Shown piece after piece: positions 10,600-22,590 of a stretch of DNA of 22,590 nt; within the stretch, counting starts at the first letter, position 1; every line of letters starts with the position of its first letter. The notes beneath the pieces are model-generated. The model worked only from the letters and a program-made list of their open reading frames with translations. It had not been told where the DNA came from and made no database searches. The translations under genes and the position numbers were made by a program. Origin of the DNA: a virus. The stretch spans positions 1-22,590 of the IMG/VR virus record IMGVR_UViG_3300006598_000001. The stretch is one strand, 5' to 3'.

Positions 10600-11693
10600 G
10601 CTGGTTTTCTTTTCTGGGGGGTTCATCGAGCAAAACTGAAATGATCGATATTTACCCGATACCGATCAGCGAGAGAGATTTCGTCTCAATCGACGTTCAA
10701 AACATATATACCCGCATCCTTACTGACGTTTTGGAGCGCACCCAAGGCATCCCAGAGGACGCAAAAAACCTGCTTTGGGATAACTGCTTGGCCTCTGAAA
10801 AGCAGGACGGCTTGGTGACAATGGTCGCAAAAGCCATGGTCGGCAAATCGGACCTTTTCCTGGTCTATATCAAGGGCCTCAAAGTGATCCGCAAAGCTGA
10901 TCCCTCTGAGGAGGCTCAAATCAGAGCTGATTATAAGGCCAAAGGGGAATCGTCGGTTGGCGTTTACCTGACGTTCAAAAACTATGGACGCACCGATATG
11001 GTCAAGTTTTACTCCCAGCTTGAATACTGCTCGGTTGGGGGACTTTGGAAACAGGGTAATATCTCAAAGGCCATCCAGCTCAAATTCAGTGACCTAAGGG
11101 GGAGTGTGAGTCTCGGTGACAGCGCAGAGACCAAAACCCAGGCCCAGGCCATCGCCACGGGTTTATCTCAGGGCAAAGATATCATGCTGGATGCCAAGGA
11201 CACTGTCGAAACCGCAAAGCCTGATATGGCCGCAACCACCGCTGCAATGGATTTCATCGCTCAAAAGAGATCGTTTTATTTGGGTATGCCGGCAACCTAT
11301 TTGACCGGTGAGGCATCCAAAGGCCTTGGCGACTCTGGTAAGGGCGACAGCAAAGCCACCGAGCGCGGTCTCAAGGGGTATTATTTCAGCATTGGTAAGC
11401 CTGTTATTGAGGGCATTTTTGGCGTGAAAACCACGTTTAAGTCAGAGGATACCGAGGGCCTTGAAACCGCTCTCAAAGTCGTTGAGACGTTTGACCGCAC
11501 CAGCGATGAGCACTTGTCCAAGGACAATAAAACTCTGATCGTAAATAAAGCCTTTGGCCTCGATGAGTCTGAGGTTGGTGATGAGCCGGATCCGAATGAT
11601 CGAGCCAATCAACCCCCCGCCGCAATCGATCCAAAGACAGGTAAGCCAGTGGTGCCACCTGGGACGCCACCAACGCCGCCTCCCAAGGCGTAA
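10596..11693 (+). CDS. Portal protein (candidate, small)
   Basis: ATGA overlap with the upstream gene. It is 365 aa and lies between the terminase and the Mu F-like gene (SPP1/Mu synteny). The C-terminus is Pro-rich. The call rests on synteny only. Confidence 0.55.
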   Translation: MSWFSFLGGSSSKTEMIDIYPIPISERDFVSIDVQNIYTRILTDVLERTQGIPEDAKNLLWDNCLASEKQDGLVTMVAKAMVGKSDLFLVYIKGLKVIRKADPSEEAQIRADYKAKGESSVGVYLTFKNYGRTDMVKFYSQLEYCSVGGLWKQGNISKAIQLKFSDLRGSVSLGDSAETKTQAQAIATGLSQGKDIMLDAKDTVETAKPDMAATTAAMDFIAQKRSFYLGMPATYLTGEASKGLGDSGKGDSKATERGLKGYYFSIGKPVIEGIFGVKTTFKSEDTEGLETALKVVETFDRTSDEHLSKDNKTLIVNKAFGLDESEVGDEPDPNDRANQPPAAIDPKTGKPVVPPGTPPTPPPKA

Positions 11694-11696
11694 GGG

Positions 11697-11891
11697 ATGG
11701 GCCGCCGCACTTACAAGATGTGTGAGCGTAAACGTAAACTCAAAAGCGGGGAGGCCAATAAAATGGCATCCCGTTTCAATCAAAGGAAATACGAGTGCCC
11801 GATTTGCGGGCATTGGCATTTAACCAAAATGAAAGGCGATCAAGATGAACCGGGCGACACGACGAAAACAGGCGATCCACATAGCGAATAA
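11697..11891 (+). CDS. Small basic zinc-ribbon-like protein
   Basis: It is 64 aa and contains RKYECPICGHWHLT. Confidence 0.45.
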   Translation: MGRRTYKMCERKRKLKSGEANKMASRFNQRKYECPICGHWHLTKMKGDQDEPGDTTKTGDPHSE

Positions 11892-12021
11892 CGTGATTAA
11901 GGGCCGGCAATTGTCCGTTGCCAAAAAGCAGTATGGACTTGGCTTAGTGATAACCAATCTCATGTGTGTGATCACTTTTGGCCCATGGACTTTTGCGCTT
12001 TGGGATCGACGGCTCAAGTAA
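11845..12021 (+). CDS. Hypothetical 58-aa ORF (alternative start GTG 11893)
   Basis: It is not in the track. Its stop TAA 12019..12021 overlaps the next ATG (TAATG). The SD is weak. Confidence 0.3.
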   Translation: MNRATRRKQAIHIANNVIKGRQLSVAKKQYGLGLVITNLMCVITFGPWTFALWDRRLK

Positions 12022-12197
12022 TGCTGATTTACCTGCTGGTCTCTTTTTACATAGGCCTCTGCTTTTCGCCTGAGATACCGGTCCCAGTGCCCGTTGACTC
12101 AAGGTGCTTTGAGGCTGGGGTTTTCAATGAGGATATCGGCGACGACGACCTGGATTGCCAAAATGATCTATATTTGAATTGGAGCAAGCAACGGTGA
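12021..12197 (+). CDS. Hypothetical 58-aa membrane protein (MLIYLLVSFYIGLCF...)
   Basis: It has a TAATG overlap upstream and a GTGA overlap downstream with the Mu F-like gene. It has one hydrophobic helix and an acidic tail. Confidence 0.35.
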   Translation: MLIYLLVSFYIGLCFSPEIPVPVPVDSRCFEAGVFNEDIGDDDLDCQNDLYLNWSKQR

Positions 12198-12715
12198 GCA
12201 TTGTTTTCGATCCCCGCAATATGCTTAAAAAGGTGGCACCGGTCGCAAAAATCAAGCGAATGGTATCCAGCCGATTGTCTGTCAAAAGGACAATACTTGC
12301 GCATATTGGCTCGGATGAGTTTCCGATCGATGAGAGGTCCCTTGCAAAGGTCGCTCGAAACACTTTGCTGGGATATAAGGAGCGCATTGCCAAGGCTGTC
12401 GTTGACGCTGGATTTCAGCGGAGCGCCGGCACTGAGGAAAAACAGGCCATCCTTGACGATCCCAAGCAGCTCATTCAACGTGTCCAAAACGAGGTCGTTT
12501 ACCAAGTCCACCAGGGGATCAAAGAAAAGTATTCGGGCCAAAAGGCTCGATGGCTCCCCTCGGACGCCGATGAACCTAGACCAGAGCACCAAGCCAATTA
12601 CGGTAAGGTGTATATTATTGGTGAGGGGATTGACGGCGTTGAACCCGGCGACGAGTACGGGTGCAAATGTGGCGTTGAAATTTTAACGGATGAAACCCAG
12701 CTCGATTTGAGCTGA
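12194..12715 (+). CDS. Minor head protein, Mu gpF / SPP1 gp7-like (short form)
   Basis: The C-terminal ARWLPSDADEPRPEHQANYGKVYIIGEGIDGVEPGDEYGCKCG fits the Mu F family motif (R..H..l.G.......PG....nCRC). It follows the portal. The start is uncertain (TTG 12179, GTG 12194 or ATG 12221). Confidence 0.65.
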   Translation: MSIVFDPRNMLKKVAPVAKIKRMVSSRLSVKRTILAHIGSDEFPIDERSLAKVARNTLLGYKERIAKAVVDAGFQRSAGTEEKQAILDDPKQLIQRVQNEVVYQVHQGIKEKYSGQKARWLPSDADEPRPEHQANYGKVYIIGEGIDGVEPGDEYGCKCGVEILTDETQLDLS

Positions 12716-13380: not shown

Positions 13381-13815
13381 ATGCCACACGACGCAAATAA
13401 AATTCAGATGGGCACCACACGGTCGAGCATCCGCGAGGTCTCAAACCACGTCGGTGCCATAGCCGCTGGAAAAGTCGTACGTTTAAAATCCGACGATACA
13501 ATCACCACTGTCGTCACTGACGGTGCAGCAGTTGGCGTTTCGATAGGTCGAGATCAATCGAGCACGACTCAAACTCATACCGCGATCGTTGACAGAGGTC
13601 TTGGGGTGCCGATCCTTTTGGACGCCGCTTATGAGCCTGAGATTGGTGAGCAGGTCGCAATCATTGACGGCACCGGCATTGCCCGAGCATACACTGGCAC
13701 GGGCGATTATTACGTAAACGCACATTTCAGCTCTGAAAAAATGAGCGCAGTCGATGAGGATGGCGCGGCCATCACCAACGGAGCTGCATATATTGATTTC
13801 CCTGGAGGCTTATAA
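13381..13815 (+). CDS. Decoration/cement-like small beta protein (DUF2190-like), paralog 1, without insert
   Basis: It is 144 aa and ends PGGL*. It aligns with the N- and C-terminal parts of 13815..14651. It lies between the scaffold and the capsid gene. Confidence 0.55.
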   Translation: MPHDANKIQMGTTRSSIREVSNHVGAIAAGKVVRLKSDDTITTVVTDGAAVGVSIGRDQSSTTQTHTAIVDRGLGVPILLDAAYEPEIGEQVAIIDGTGIARAYTGTGDYYVNAHFSSEKMSAVDEDGAAITNGAAYIDFPGGL

Positions 13816-14651
13816 TGCATAGCGCGTCAAAAGTTTTGCTGGGTTCAACCCGGTCGAACCATAAAGACGTATCGAAATACGAGTCCAGCCCAGACACTTA
13901 TCTGGCTGGTCTTTGCGTTTCGGTCGCCACCACTGGAGCCTTGAGCCTGTTAAAATCCGATGGTTTTCGAGTTGGTGTATCCCTTGGAAAAGGGTTATCT
14001 GCTGACACGAAATGCACTTCGGTTTTGAGATCAGGCAAAAAGGTCCCCGTTCGAGCGCATTTGAAACGCTCCACTGGCACCATTACCATTACCAATATTG
14101 CCAACCTAGTCGATGGCACTGACGATACTGTCACGATTGGTGGCACGGCATTTACGGCCACTGACGGAGCCGTGGTTGCTGGTCAGGCGACTTTCGACGC
14201 AAGGACTGGCACCTCGAATGCTGCGACAAGCCTTGCAGCTCAAATCAACGCTCACGCCACCGCTGGTGCAAAGGTTTACGCTGTCGCCAATGGCGCGGTC
14301 GTTACTCTTTATGCACGAGTTGAGGGTGCTGGCACTGGCCACGATGTTACGACGACCTATGAGCAGCTTGGCACGGGCACTGGAGCGACAGTCGCTCAAG
14401 CTGCTTTGGCGGGTGGTTCTAATACAATCTCCGCAATCGCTTACGCCGCTCCTGGTGGCTATATGTATATTAACGACGTGACCGGAAAAGCTGACGTTGC
14501 AATGTCAGGTTTTTCGACCGTTTCCAATGCTGTCTATGTGGCACCAACCAAAGGTGCAACGTCAGCGGTGGTTACTGGTGTAACTGAGGGATCACTTGAA
14601 AGTGTTTCCGAAGTCGCAGCAGTATTGGTTGATATGCCGGGAGGCTTATAA
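13815..14651 (+). CDS. Decoration/cement-like protein, paralog 2, carrying display-module copy B
   Basis: It is 278 aa and also ends PGGL*. The same ggaggcttataATG junction occurs at both gene ends. An internal 115-aa module is inserted after VPVRAHLKRS. Confidence 0.6.
   Translation: MHSASKVLLGSTRSNHKDVSKYESSPDTYLAGLCVSVATTGALSLLKSDGFRVGVSLGKGLSADTKCTSVLRSGKKVPVRAHLKRSTGTITITNIANLVDGTDDTVTIGGTAFTATDGAVVAGQATFDARTGTSNAATSLAAQINAHATAGAKVYAVANGAVVTLYARVEGAGTGHDVTTTYEQLGTGTGATVAQAALAGGSNTISAIAYAAPGGYMYINDVTGKADVAMSGFSTVSNAVYVAPTKGATSAVVTGVTEGSLESVSEVAAVLVDMPGGL
14073..14417 (+). repeat. Display-module copy B (STGTITITNIANLVDGTDDTVTIG...GATVAQAALAGG)
   Basis: It aligns with copies A and C. Nucleotides 14100..14128 are identical to 92..120. 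Confidence 0.85.
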
Positions 14652-14824
14652 TGGCACGCAAAAAAAAGGAAAAGGCCTCGCAGGATGAGGCCGAAAAAAT
14701 GCTTGAGACGGGGGAGGCCGAAATCCCTGTCGAGGCAATTGTCAATGAACCAGAGTCTAGTTCGGTAAATTCAGATATTGAAAAGCATCCAAAATTCAGT
14801 AAATTTAAGTCACGGGGGAAATAA
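14651..14824 (+). CDS. 57-aa Lys/Glu-rich ORF (MARKKKEKASQDEAEKMLETGEAE...)
   Basis: TAATG overlap with the upstream gene. It ends 2 nt before the capsid gene ATG. It is below the track cutoff. Confidence 0.4.
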   Translation: MARKKKEKASQDEAEKMLETGEAEIPVEAIVNEPESSSVNSDIEKHPKFSKFKSRGK

Positions 14825-16937: not shown

Positions 16938-18281
16938 ATGGCCAAAATTTTGCTTGATTATTTTTTCAAAATTACCGCTCTAAACCCGACGCCGGCCGCC
17001 TCAACTGCATACCTGAAACAGGCTTGCGTGGTGGTGTCTCCAAAGGGTGGTTACATGGGCGCTATGGGCACGCCGGTTTTATGCACCACGAATGCTCAAA
17101 TAGCCGCCGTCACTGACAACGTCGAGGCCCAGCAGCTCCTTAGCGCAGGCCTGAGCCGTGTATATATCATGCCGGTTGACGACCTTTACCTCGCTGATTT
17201 CCTCGCTGCTGAGCCAGCTTTGAATAAGTTTTTTACTCTCTTAATTTCGAGCGATTTCGATGCTGCTGACGTTGCACCAACTGCTGCAACCGGCACCGTT
17301 ACGATCAGCTCATACGCAAATTTGATTGAGGGCAGCGACTTTGACACGATCAAAGTTGGTGGAGTGACTTTCGTTGCTCAAGCTGGTGCAGCGACACTCG
17401 GCACGGCCACATTTCGGGCCGCAACCGATAACGACACGACAGCAGAGAGTCTTAAAACTCAAATCAACGCCCATGAGGACCTAGAGGACTTGGTAATTGC
17501 CACACGCTCTGGAGCAGTGGTTACCATTACGGCCCTTGATACTGGCTCGGGTGGAAATGAAATTGCTTTGGAATATTCCGACGAGGACGGTGGATCTCCG
17601 ACAGTTGGAGCCAGTGTTTCAGGAGCGAACCTTACGGGTGGCGATGGCTTATTCCTTGGTGATTTTGACGGCGTGGTTGGCGTGACTGAGGACGAAACTC
17701 AGCTTGAATTTTTGGCCGCTCAAGCCGCAATTGAAAACCGCTGCGCATTCTTTGGTTCATCCACCAATAAAGGCAAAAATATGATGTATGCCTTTGGTAA
17801 ATTGCTCTCAAATCCAAGCGATTGGCTCAACCAGCAATTCGTGACCATGCCTTTTGACGACGCAGTTGACGTCCTTGGCGATGCTGAGGGATTTTTCGAC
17901 GATAAAATCAGCTTTTCGATCAGCGACGAGGAGTTTGGAAACAAGCTGTCACTTTTCTGCTGCGGCGGTAAAGCGATCGTTGCACCTTACATTTTACGCA
18001 ATCTCGAAATCGATCTCCAGAGCAAAGGCCTGCAATATGTTTCGGCCAATCAGCCTGGATACACCCGAACCCAAGCAGCACTCCTTGAGGATGAGCTGCA
18101 AAAGGTTATTGACGGGGATGGCCTAGAAAACGGTAACCCCGGTTACGTTGGTCGCGGCTGGATCACTGAGGGATCGGTGGCGATTTCATTGACTGAGGAC
18201 AATTTCGTGGCCTCGGGCAGTATCGACGTCCCAACCCCCCGAGCACTATGGCGAGTTAACGGAACCCTTACACAAAGTTAA
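16938..18281 (+). CDS. Tail sheath protein (candidate) carrying display-module copy C
   Basis: SD gaggag. It is 447 aa and lies directly upstream of the tube, chaperone and tape measure genes. W/J/I-like baseplate genes are present, which implies a contractile tail. Confidence 0.6.
   Translation: MAKILLDYFFKITALNPTPAASTAYLKQACVVVSPKGGYMGAMGTPVLCTTNAQIAAVTDNVEAQQLLSAGLSRVYIMPVDDLYLADFLAAEPALNKFFTLLISSDFDAADVAPTAATGTVTISSYANLIEGSDFDTIKVGGVTFVAQAGAATLGTATFRAATDNDTTAESLKTQINAHEDLEDLVIATRSGAVVTITALDTGSGGNEIALEYSDEDGGSPTVGASVSGANLTGGDGLFLGDFDGVVGVTEDETQLEFLAAQAAIENRCAFFGSSTNKGKNMMYAFGKLLSNPSDWLNQQFVTMPFDDAVDVLGDAEGFFDDKISFSISDEEFGNKLSLFCCGGKAIVAPYILRNLEIDLQSKGLQYVSANQPGYTRTQAALLEDELQKVIDGDGLENGNPGYVGRGWITEGSVAISLTEDNFVASGSIDVPTPRALWRVNGTLTQS
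17286..17642 (+). repeat. Display-module copy C (ATGTVTISSYANLIEGSDFDTIKVG...GASVSGANLTGG)
   Basis: It aligns with copies A and B. Confidence 0.85.
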
Positions 18282-21472: not shown

Positions 21473-21851
21473 GATTTTAGATGCAACGTGCAACGCAACG
21501 GGGGTGGTAACGGCTGAGGGGAAACCTGTAACCGTTGCCACCGTGTTATCAGAGGGCAAGCAGCAATCGGCTGGCCTCCTTTTCATCCAGGGCGATAAGG
21601 CTTGGTTTATTCCGTCGAGTGCGACGGATATCAAGACGACAATCGAAAAGCTGATTTCGGTGATTGAAAAGACAGCCGACTCAGTCACCCAAATCGCCAC
21701 CACATTGACCTCAATTGGTGCGGGGATGACAGGACCAACGACAGCTCCCCCGCCAACGCTCGGCGCTGACGTGGTGACTTTAAATTTGAAAGTGACTGAG
21801 CTGAATGCAGTTAAAACAGAGCTGACAACGCTCAAGGGAGCATTGAAATGA
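21465..21851 (+). CDS. Baseplate spike-like protein (gpV-class candidate)
   Basis: TTG start 6 nt after SD ggagg. The N-terminal beta-rich segment TGVVTAEGKPVTVATVLSEGKQQSAGLLFIQGDKAWFIP is followed by a C-terminal coiled coil. It lies just upstream of the W-like gene. Confidence 0.35.
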   Translation: MSEILDATCNATGVVTAEGKPVTVATVLSEGKQQSAGLLFIQGDKAWFIPSSATDIKTTIEKLISVIEKTADSVTQIATTLTSIGAGMTGPTTAPPPTLGADVVTLNLKVTELNAVKTELTTLKGALK

Positions 21852-22159
21852 TCGATATCGTTGATTTCACACCCAAGGGCATGGATGTTTACGACACTCA
21901 AACTGAGAGGGCCGCCAATATCTTGTCGGTTCAAATCGGCTCACTCGAATATGCTCAGGATCTAGGCATCGATCTCCGTTACTTTTTGACCGAGAATATT
22001 AAATTTCAAAACGCCAGTTTCAAGGGTTACCTAGTCCAAAGTTTGGCCAATCGAGGGATCAATGTGGCCAGCGTGCTCGAAGTGCTTGAGGCTCTGTCGT
22101 CAAACTATACAATCAACCTGAGCCCAGAGGAAAACTCCACTGGCTGGGTGGCGAGGTAA
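21848..22159 (+). CDS. Baseplate wedge protein, gpW / gp25-like
   Basis: ATGA overlap with the upstream gene. It is 103 aa. ILSVQIGSLEYAQDLGIDL parallels P2 gpW ILRTPVGSRVMRRDYGSLL. It precedes the J-like gene. Confidence 0.5.
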   Translation: MIDIVDFTPKGMDVYDTQTERAANILSVQIGSLEYAQDLGIDLRYFLTENIKFQNASFKGYLVQSLANRGINVASVLEVLEALSSNYTINLSPEENSTGWVAR

Positions 22160-22163
22160 TTAA

Positions 22164-22590
22164 ATGGGATATGCTCAGGAAAACGGTTACACACCGGTTG
22201 ATATCGAAACAATCATGGCCTCAATCATGGCCAATATTAATACCCAATTTGAGCTGGATCCCCCATACACCATGGACACTTTCGTTGGGACCAACGCTTA
22301 CAAGTATTTTTATGCGCTTGCGCAAAAGGCTCAGGAGGGGGAGGTCAAGACCTCTGAAATTTTTCAAAAACTCCAGGGCTATTTCGATCAAATCAATGCT
22401 CGGATCTCACGACCTGTCGTAACTCAACCCGGCACCATTGAAAAAATTGAGATGGAGGGATACCAGACCTCGGTCAAGGCCATGATTGAGGCTGACGCCG
22501 GTAAGCGCCACATTTGCATTGACGTTGACGATGGGGTGCACGCAACCGGTGAAGTTGAAATCACCAGCTATGCCAACCTAGTCGATGGCA
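22164..22590 (+). CDS. Baseplate J-like protein (P2 gpJ / Mu gp47 class), 5' part; continues into 2..859 across the junction (391 aa in total)
   Basis: ATG 22164 follows SD gaggt with a 6-nt spacer. The frame is open to the window end (MGYAQENGYTPVDIETIMASIMANINTQF...) although absent from the supplied ORF track. Position 22482 corresponds to position 2, so the frame is continuous with ORF 2..859. Confidence 0.7.
   Translation, partial: MGYAQENGYTPVDIETIMASIMANINTQFELDPPYTMDTFVGTNAYKYFYALAQKAQEGEVKTSEIFQKLQGYFDQINARISRPVVTQPGTIEKIEMEGYQTSVKAMIEADAGKRHICIDVDDGVHATGEVEITSYANLVDG
22481..22590. repeat. Terminal direct repeat, copy 2 (exact copy of 1..110)
   Basis: Same 110-nt string as 1..110. 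Unique genome length is therefore 22,480 bp. Confidence 0.95.

Follow-up and report, generated by a model that had tools for sequence, protein, structure and literature searches.

Immunoglobulin (Ig)-like domains (Big_2, I-set and FN3) were reportedly described by Fraser et al. in 2006 on phage structural proteins, such as T4 Hoc and the C-terminus of lambda gpV. In the lactococcal 936-group siphophages, carbohydrate-binding 'bricks' are reused in the neck passage structure, the major tail protein extension and the evolved Dit, and host-cell binding has been demonstrated for two carbohydrate-binding modules (CBMs) of these phages (Hayes et al. 2019, PMC6669499). Phage tail sheaths can also carry an extra domain, which points outward and is their structurally most variable part (domain III of Mu gp39, PMC11915804; D3 of phiTE, PMC11972413; Evseev 2022, PMC9230969), and the same papers presume that it was gained in evolution for stability or adsorption. 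Our study concerns a stretch of 22,590 nucleotides (nt), positions 1 to 22,590 of the IMG/VR virus record IMGVR_UViG_3300006598_000001 and here called the window, in which one module of about 115 amino acids (aa) is inserted into three otherwise dissimilar virion proteins. We consider it rather probable that this module is an accessory cassette domain whose copies on head, tail and baseplate face outward and bind the host surface weakly and multivalently.

The three copies of the module and their positions in the host proteins are as follows.

62..406, + strand: module copy A, 115 aa, residues 127-241 of the 391-aa J-position protein (host A).
14070..14417, + strand: module copy B, 116 aa, residues 86-201 of the 278-aa host B.
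17286..17642, + strand: module copy C, 119 aa, residues 117-235 of the 447-aa tail sheath (host C), matched exactly by the profile envelope.

Comparison of the full host proteins by BLASTP aligned copies A and B at 57% identity over 119 columns (E 9e-32), copies A and C at 57% over 120 columns (E 1e-31) and copies B and C at 45% over 121 columns (E 6e-19), and 44 columns are invariant in the three-way alignment. The original prediction, made from the letters of the window, that one module of this size occurs in three proteins is thus borne out with its translations as quoted; its coordinates for copies A and C stand, while the start of copy B, placed at 14073, lies one codon earlier at 14070. 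The module is also the sole element common to the three hosts, as had been claimed, because all remaining high-scoring segment pairs between the hosts in BLASTP have E >= 0.057. A six-frame scan with a module profile, built with metagenomic relatives, found exactly three copies in the window, the next-best match (E 0.16) being the start of copy A as duplicated in the terminal overlap described below. The copies total 1,050 nt (345 + 348 + 357), which is 4.7% of a 22,480-bp genome and corrects the earlier estimate of about 5% of the coding capacity of a 22.5-kb genome. Within 80-164 and 14088-14172, where the DNA of copies A and B is otherwise ~75% identical, a stretch of 29 nt (GCCAACCTAGTCGATGGCACTGACGATAC) is exactly the same in both and may be a short gene-conversion tract.

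The host of copy C was identified from its structure, using a full-length AlphaFold2 (AF2) model and Foldseek.

16938..18281, + strand: tail sheath gene, 447 aa, host of copy C.

The model, based on 36 homologs, has a mean predicted local distance difference test (pLDDT) score of 77 and disordered N- and C-terminal arms, as expected of a sheath. Its top 13 matches in the PDB are all phage sheaths (E 2e-9 to 2e-5, 520-570 columns aligned), including those of A-1(L), Mu, Milano, PhiTE, XM1 and 7-7-1, and the sheaths of pyocin R2, AFP and PVC follow at lower rank. The core of the protein is in addition 56% identical to the 'putative tail sheath protein' of Bdellovibrio phage MAC3UK, and host C is, on the evidence of the predicted structure, a tail sheath. 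Sequence profiles did not recognise this core: the PDB profile search returned nothing outside the module region, a match to phrog_165 'tail sheath' (E 4.6e-5) is limited to the module region, and hhalign of the host C alignment against the single Mu gp39 sequence gave no signal, single-sequence templates being too weak for such a comparison. The module sits where Mu-type sheaths carry the outward, variable domain III/D3 (~residues 100-230). The flanks of this site join directly in insert-free sheath homologs, and more distant Vibrio and Dulem relatives align to the sheath over ~306 aa without the insert.

The gene of host A is divided between the two ends of the window. The first 110 bases of the window are exactly the same as the last 110 (1-110 versus 22481-22590), and because of this overlap the window represents a closed circular (or terminally redundant) genome of 22,480 bp.

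22164..22590, + strand: host A gene, 5' part, of which 22481-22590 duplicates 1-110.
1..859, + strand: host A gene, 3' part, the gene spanning the circular junction.
21848..22159, + strand: gp25/W-like baseplate wedge subunit, 103 aa, directly upstream of host A.

Reading from 22164 through the junction to 859 gives one open reading frame (ORF) of 391 aa in which copy A is internal, and the earlier claim of internal insertion therefore holds for this host as well. The upstream 103-aa protein is 54% identical to MAC3UK_0031, which itself matches phrog_43 'baseplate wedge subunit' (E 2.5e-4), and the order of 103-, 391-, 182- and 356-aa proteins mirrors Mu gp46-gp49 (145, 360, 180 and 504 aa). 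A homolog of host A in Dulem virus 29 (31% identical) is annotated 'baseplate complex protein'. This gene position and the annotation of relatives suggest the label 'baseplate J-like' for host A; hhalign against Mu gp47 gave a probability of 0.4%, a single-sequence template being too weak here also.

Host B lies in the head module, beside a paralog that has no insert.

13815..14651, + strand: host B, 278 aa, between the scaffold-like gene and the major-capsid-sized gene.
13381..13815, + strand: module-free paralog of host B, 144 aa, adjoining host B.

The two proteins are 32% identical over the N-terminal 79 residues (BLASTP, E 3e-9) and have a common C-terminal D-x-PGGL, and host B from which the module has been deleted aligns end to end with the 144-aa paralog and with the 137-151-aa orthologs of seven relatives. 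Both paralogs end in D-x-PGGL-stop followed by ATG (13779-13817 versus 14615-14653). The shared ends are consistent with a tandem duplication in which the module was later gained by one copy. In MAC3UK a Gly-rich coiled-coil scaffold-like gene (249 aa), a 151-aa host B homolog and the major capsid protein follow each other in the same order as in the window, and the gene position, which is that of a lambda gpD-type decoration gene, suggests the label 'decoration' for host B.

For the distribution of the module among relatives, six IMG/VR genomes (19-24 kb) and two JGI contigs were scanned with the module profile and the host proteins, and the following combinations were found.

L003 and L005: module in the sheath, in host B and in the J-position protein.
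L002: module in the sheath and in host B; J-position protein with no insert.
L004: module in the sheath and in host B; J-position gene beyond the fetched DNA.
L006: different insert in the sheath; module in host B and in the J-position protein.
L007: different insert in the sheath; host B gene beyond the fetched DNA; J-position protein with no insert.
L008: sheath with no insert (~309 aa); short host B paralog only; J-position protein with no insert (~270 aa).

The insert pattern of MAC3UK is like that of L007. The decoration-like and sheath genes of the JGI contigs are frameshifted (L001 10001-10839; L002 9831-11139), and the corresponding proteins P0006 and P0010 end out of frame; these frameshifts are probably sequencing or assembly errors and not biology. 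The module is found in 106 of the 120 closest sheath homologs; 7 others (309-318 aa) lack any insert and the last 7 hold a different one. Among the 120 closest J-position homologs the module is present in 71, always starting near residue 120-135, and absent from 49 (269-277 aa). A few metagenomic J-position homologs (P0013, P0054) have a second insertion site near the C-terminus, after a '...LLEY' motif. The module is thus a true accessory insertion, which is present or absent in each gene independently in the manner of a cassette, and since versions of these proteins that lack it are encoded by close relatives, the core function of each host does not require it. The alignment of homologues proposed in the original prediction has accordingly found the module present, absent or replaced, so it is not universally conserved, and the idea of a portable unit gains from these combinations, from the module-free paralog of host B and from the proportions of sheath and J-like proteins that carry it.

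The sheath site shows the exchange most clearly. Sheath cores that are 76-78% identical to that of the window carry module regions which are 79%, 60%, 53% or 31% identical, the last being the different insert, and as such near-constant cores hold such divergent inserts the site behaves as an exchange point uncoupled from the core. The different insert, of ~110-130 aa, was seen in the sheath genes of L006 (3594-4907), L007 (2309-3538) and L009 (MAC3UK, 11344-12657) and in the proteins P0214, P0257, P0270, P0281 and P0222. Only one hairpin motif (tAk.G..GN.I.i.y) of this insert is alike to the module (hhalign probability 87%), and a check for circular permutation of this 'type-2' sheath insert, made by hhalign on a doubled alignment, reached only one 42-column hairpin. 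The insert may be a rearranged or permuted relative of the module.

Orthologous copies of the module are 50-83% identical across the relatives. In a neighbour-joining tree the B copies cluster except that of L002, the sheath and J-position copies are intermixed, and there is no grouping by genome. This grouping indicates that the insertions are older than these genomes and have been inherited mostly vertically with some exchange. Recent copying within a genome was considered as the main pattern and rejected, the copies grouping mostly by host gene and not by genome.

The fold of the module was predicted from a 14-sequence alignment, and the AF2 model (pLDDT 89.8, predicted template modelling score 0.87) has eight strands and a 14-residue helix at residues 49-62. 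The module is accordingly modelled as a compact, self-folding alpha/beta domain of eight strands around one long helix. In a Foldseek search of the PDB this model matched the A-1(L) sheath 8kee (E 4.5e-4, probability 1.00, template modelling (TM) score 0.60) and the extra domain of the PhiTE and Milano sheaths, with weaker matches to the Sf14, Mu and 7-7-1 sheaths (E 0.055-0.075). A domain of T7-like nozzle proteins (8i4m, 7y22, 9jyz) was matched at E 1.7e-3 to 0.4, flagellin outer domains only weakly (9atl, E 0.058, probability 0.75; 4nx9, E 4.0), and antibodies and pilins at E > 1. In the BFVD the model matched proteins of Rhodobacter phage RcTitan (33-34% identity, TM 0.69-0.76) and others annotated as major tail protein, major capsid protein, baseplate J-like, Mu gp47 homolog, tail sheath and tail tubular protein B. 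By sequence profile, residues 98-198 of the 7-7-1 sheath are reached only marginally (E 0.04) and the Milano sheath at E 1.5. By the predicted structure, then, the fold is one already known from the outward domain of solved phage sheaths, and the suggestion of a new fold family has to be withdrawn. The accompanying statement that no Ig-like, Big_2 or FN3 motif is present agrees with the helix of the model and with the Pfam search, and no profile of a known Ig-like or carbohydrate-binding family, the outcome that had been set against novelty, matches the module.

The sequence family to which the module belongs is large. The module has no Pfam hit at E <= 1, and no Pfam-A or NCBIfam family was found for it in the window or in the carrier proteins. 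Copies A and C match phrog_28344, a family of unknown function, at E 1.8e-3 to 9.8e-3 (2.2e-4 to 1.6e-3 with the full host proteins), and copy B has no match to phrog_28344; the same family matches 56 of 114 carrier proteins with a best E of 3.9e-37. When the representatives of 1.84 billion clusters (50% identity) were searched exhaustively with a profile, 1,388 of them matched at E <= 0.001 and 372 of these at E <= 1e-10, with up to nine matched module stretches in one protein. By a stricter local count among the best 143 hits, 57 are single-copy (46 of them internal) and 86 have two to seven copies, and 113 of the 143 sit in proteins unrelated to the three hosts of the window. Six tandem copies make up much of the protein P0021 (L012 5042-7183), whose gene is flanked on its phage contig by a capsid-sized gene and an SU10_adaptor gene, a setting that points to a head fibre or decoration protein of an unrelated phage. 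Another, P0093 (L013 1649-5296), consists largely of tandem copies, with up to nine matched stretches; the contigs of P0093 and of a further tandem-array protein, P0019, are too short for informative gene context. CBM_5_12 is present somewhere in 3 of the 114 carrier proteins. A tblastn search of copy C against 50,697 phage records gave no match, which is probably an effect of the low-complexity filter and not true absence, because RcTitan protein structures in the BFVD match at 33-34% identity.

These results may be brought together in the following mechanism. The module is spliced in frame into loops of the sheath, of the J-position baseplate wedge protein and of one of the two head paralogs, and would spread between genes by in-frame recombination, for which N- and C-terminal strands that are possibly adjacent would be of help. 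Head, tail and baseplate would then each expose many copies of it on their outer surface, and these could bind a host-surface polymer with low affinity but multivalently, raising the rate of productive encounters. An adhesion role is plausible by analogy with the Ig-like domains and with the carbohydrate-binding 'bricks' of the lactococcal 936 phages. A wider form of this proposal is tentative and in our opinion somewhat doubtful: that the module belongs to a very large mobile virion-display family tied to sheath domain III, which hops by in-frame cassette exchange among capsid, sheath and baseplate genes, forms tandem arrays elsewhere and represents a new class of host-surface adhesins that tunes adsorption. 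If this were true, the smallest known myoviruses would provide a natural allelic series of 0, 2 or 3 modules.

Several observations weigh against the display and adhesion proposal. The module is entirely absent from the cultured relatives, Bdellovibrio phages phi1402 and MAC3UK, and is hence not needed for the lifestyle of the clade. Its surface exposure is taken by analogy with published sheath structures in the case of the sheath and is assumed in hosts A and B. The label of host C as a sheath has been upheld by structure, whereas those of hosts A and B come from gene order and the annotation of relatives: searches of Pfam, PHROG, NCBIfam and PDB profiles gave no Baseplate_J match for host A and no decoration-family match for host B. 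Carbohydrate-binding families have no profile match to the module, and its invariant positions are mostly hydrophobic or glycine, as in a scaffold rather than a defined binding site.

The last observation bears equally on the strongest alternative, in which the module is a structural brace between subunits (sheath to sheath, or as capsid cement) or a common docking surface, for example for folded-back fibres. The conserved positions would then be those of a scaffold core, virion stability is one role that has been proposed for the extra sheath domains (Evseev 2022, PMC9230969), and the A-1(L) gp31 insertion domain (~100 residues, 81-180) gives a precedent, as one copy plugs into the hub and another holds the long tail fibre, whose arm runs along the sheath groove (PMC10966104). 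Close relatives nevertheless build sheath and baseplate without the insert, or with another insert on a 76% identical core, which speaks against a fixed structural partner though it leaves room for a stabilising role, and the tandem arrays of up to nine matched stretches resemble display more than bracing. We regard this alternative as rather unlikely. A much less probable view is that the segment is integral and ancestral to each protein family, being in the sheath a normal domain III. The position in the sheath, the weak alignments to the 7-7-1 and Milano sheaths and a similar domain in J-like and Mu gp47-like proteins of the BFVD speak for it, but insert-free sheaths and J-like proteins are common in the clade, the distant Vibrio and Dulem relatives match without the insert, host B is adjoined by an insert-free paralog, and some J-like homologs have their second site near the C-terminus. 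This view is largely refuted for hosts A and B. An artefact of composition (the module is rich in A, T, G and V, and the filtered tblastn search was empty) or of a chimeric assembly is refuted, as composition-adjusted E-values reach 1e-31 with 44 invariant columns and a confident predicted fold, the copies differ by 43-55% in protein and therefore are not duplicated reads, and the same three-copy layout is present on the independent contigs L003 and L005.

The genome which carries the three copies is that of a small myovirus. Its closest cultured relatives are the Bdellovibrio phages phi1402 and MAC3UK, with which it shares the gene order and an identity of 56% in the sheath core, 52-54% in the J-position protein and 36-39% in the small head paralog, and the clade also includes Vibrio phages. 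The G+C content of the window is 49.8%, which we take to be within the range of Bdellovibrio. At 22,480 bp the genome is smaller than that of phi1402 (23.9 kb). Phage phi1402 has been called the smallest independent myovirus known (PMC3391216). All large ORFs are on the + strand and are arranged in myovirus order, as listed below, and the endolysin is given last with its coordinates.

Large terminase gene, + strand: first in the gene order, with a phrog_38 match (E 3e-40).
Portal gene, + strand: after the terminase, with a weak match.
Scaffold-like gene and then two small paralogs, + strand: next in the gene order.
Capsid-sized gene of 289 aa and then neck genes, + strand: after the two small paralogs.
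Gene of 447 aa and then tube-sized, chaperone-sized and tape-measure-sized genes, + strand: after the neck genes.
Small baseplate genes and then the 391-aa, 182-aa and 356-aa fibre-sized genes, + strand: after the tape-measure-sized gene.
3695-4768: endolysin, 357 aa, whose C-terminal half matches phrog_7 (E 7e-55).

The N-terminal part of the endolysin (residues 31-194) matches phrog_3000, which is a family of unknown function.

This study has added a non-Ig, non-CBM family to the short list of 'bricks' which phages put on exposed virion proteins. In the libraries and papers searched, a large family without a Pfam or NCBIfam model, three copies on three virion parts of a 22.5-kb genome and the clean present, absent or replaced polymorphism appear to be new, while promiscuous accessory virion domains as such, and the fold of the module in solved sheaths, are already known. 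The family comprises 1,388 clusters at 50% identity, and as neither Pfam nor NCBIfam has an entry for it, the module at present goes unlabelled in thousands of phage proteins. The phi1402-like clade is moreover an unusually clean natural experiment: its genomes of ~22 kb, near-identical in their cores, have the domain on zero, two or three virion parts or have it replaced by another insert, so that a role which has long been assumed for accessory sheath and capsid domains, but seldom tested, becomes open to direct test. The view of how contractile tails work is unchanged by the finding.

Among the known systems, the flagellin outer domains (Stenotrophomonas maltophilia 9atl, P. aeruginosa FliC 4nx9) and the T7-like nozzle domain are comparable in being exposed and variable on a helical or tubular polymer, but their scores are too weak for homology, and no Pfam family, flagellin included, matched at E <= 1. 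The insertion domain of A-1(L) gp31, of ~100 residues near residue 80-130 of a J/gp6-type wedge protein, resembles that of host A (PMC10966104), but it has a defined role in hub contact and fibre holding, and the likeness to the module is one of position and size. Like the Ig-like phage domains, which are thought to be weak surface adhesins, the module is a promiscuous accessory on many virion proteins and is dispensable for assembly; unlike them it is predicted to be alpha/beta with a long helix and not an all-beta sandwich, it occupies internal loops and not termini, and it has no match to Ig profiles. As with the CBMs of the 936 phages, several virion proteins of one phage carry related modules and their presence varies among relatives, whereas those CBMs have demonstrated binding and CBM-like folds, and the present module belongs to a myovirus, has sites which include the contractile sheath and a head gene, and is a putative binder by analogy. 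The nearest comparison is with the outward domains of type-2 (Mu-like) sheaths (Mu gp39, phiTE, A-1(L), Milano and 7-7-1), which have the same position in the chain and a fold matching the predicted one. In contrast to these domains, the module has no Pfam or NCBIfam model, is polymorphic among close relatives, being present, absent or replaced, and is found also in two non-sheath virion proteins of the same genome at 45-57% identity.

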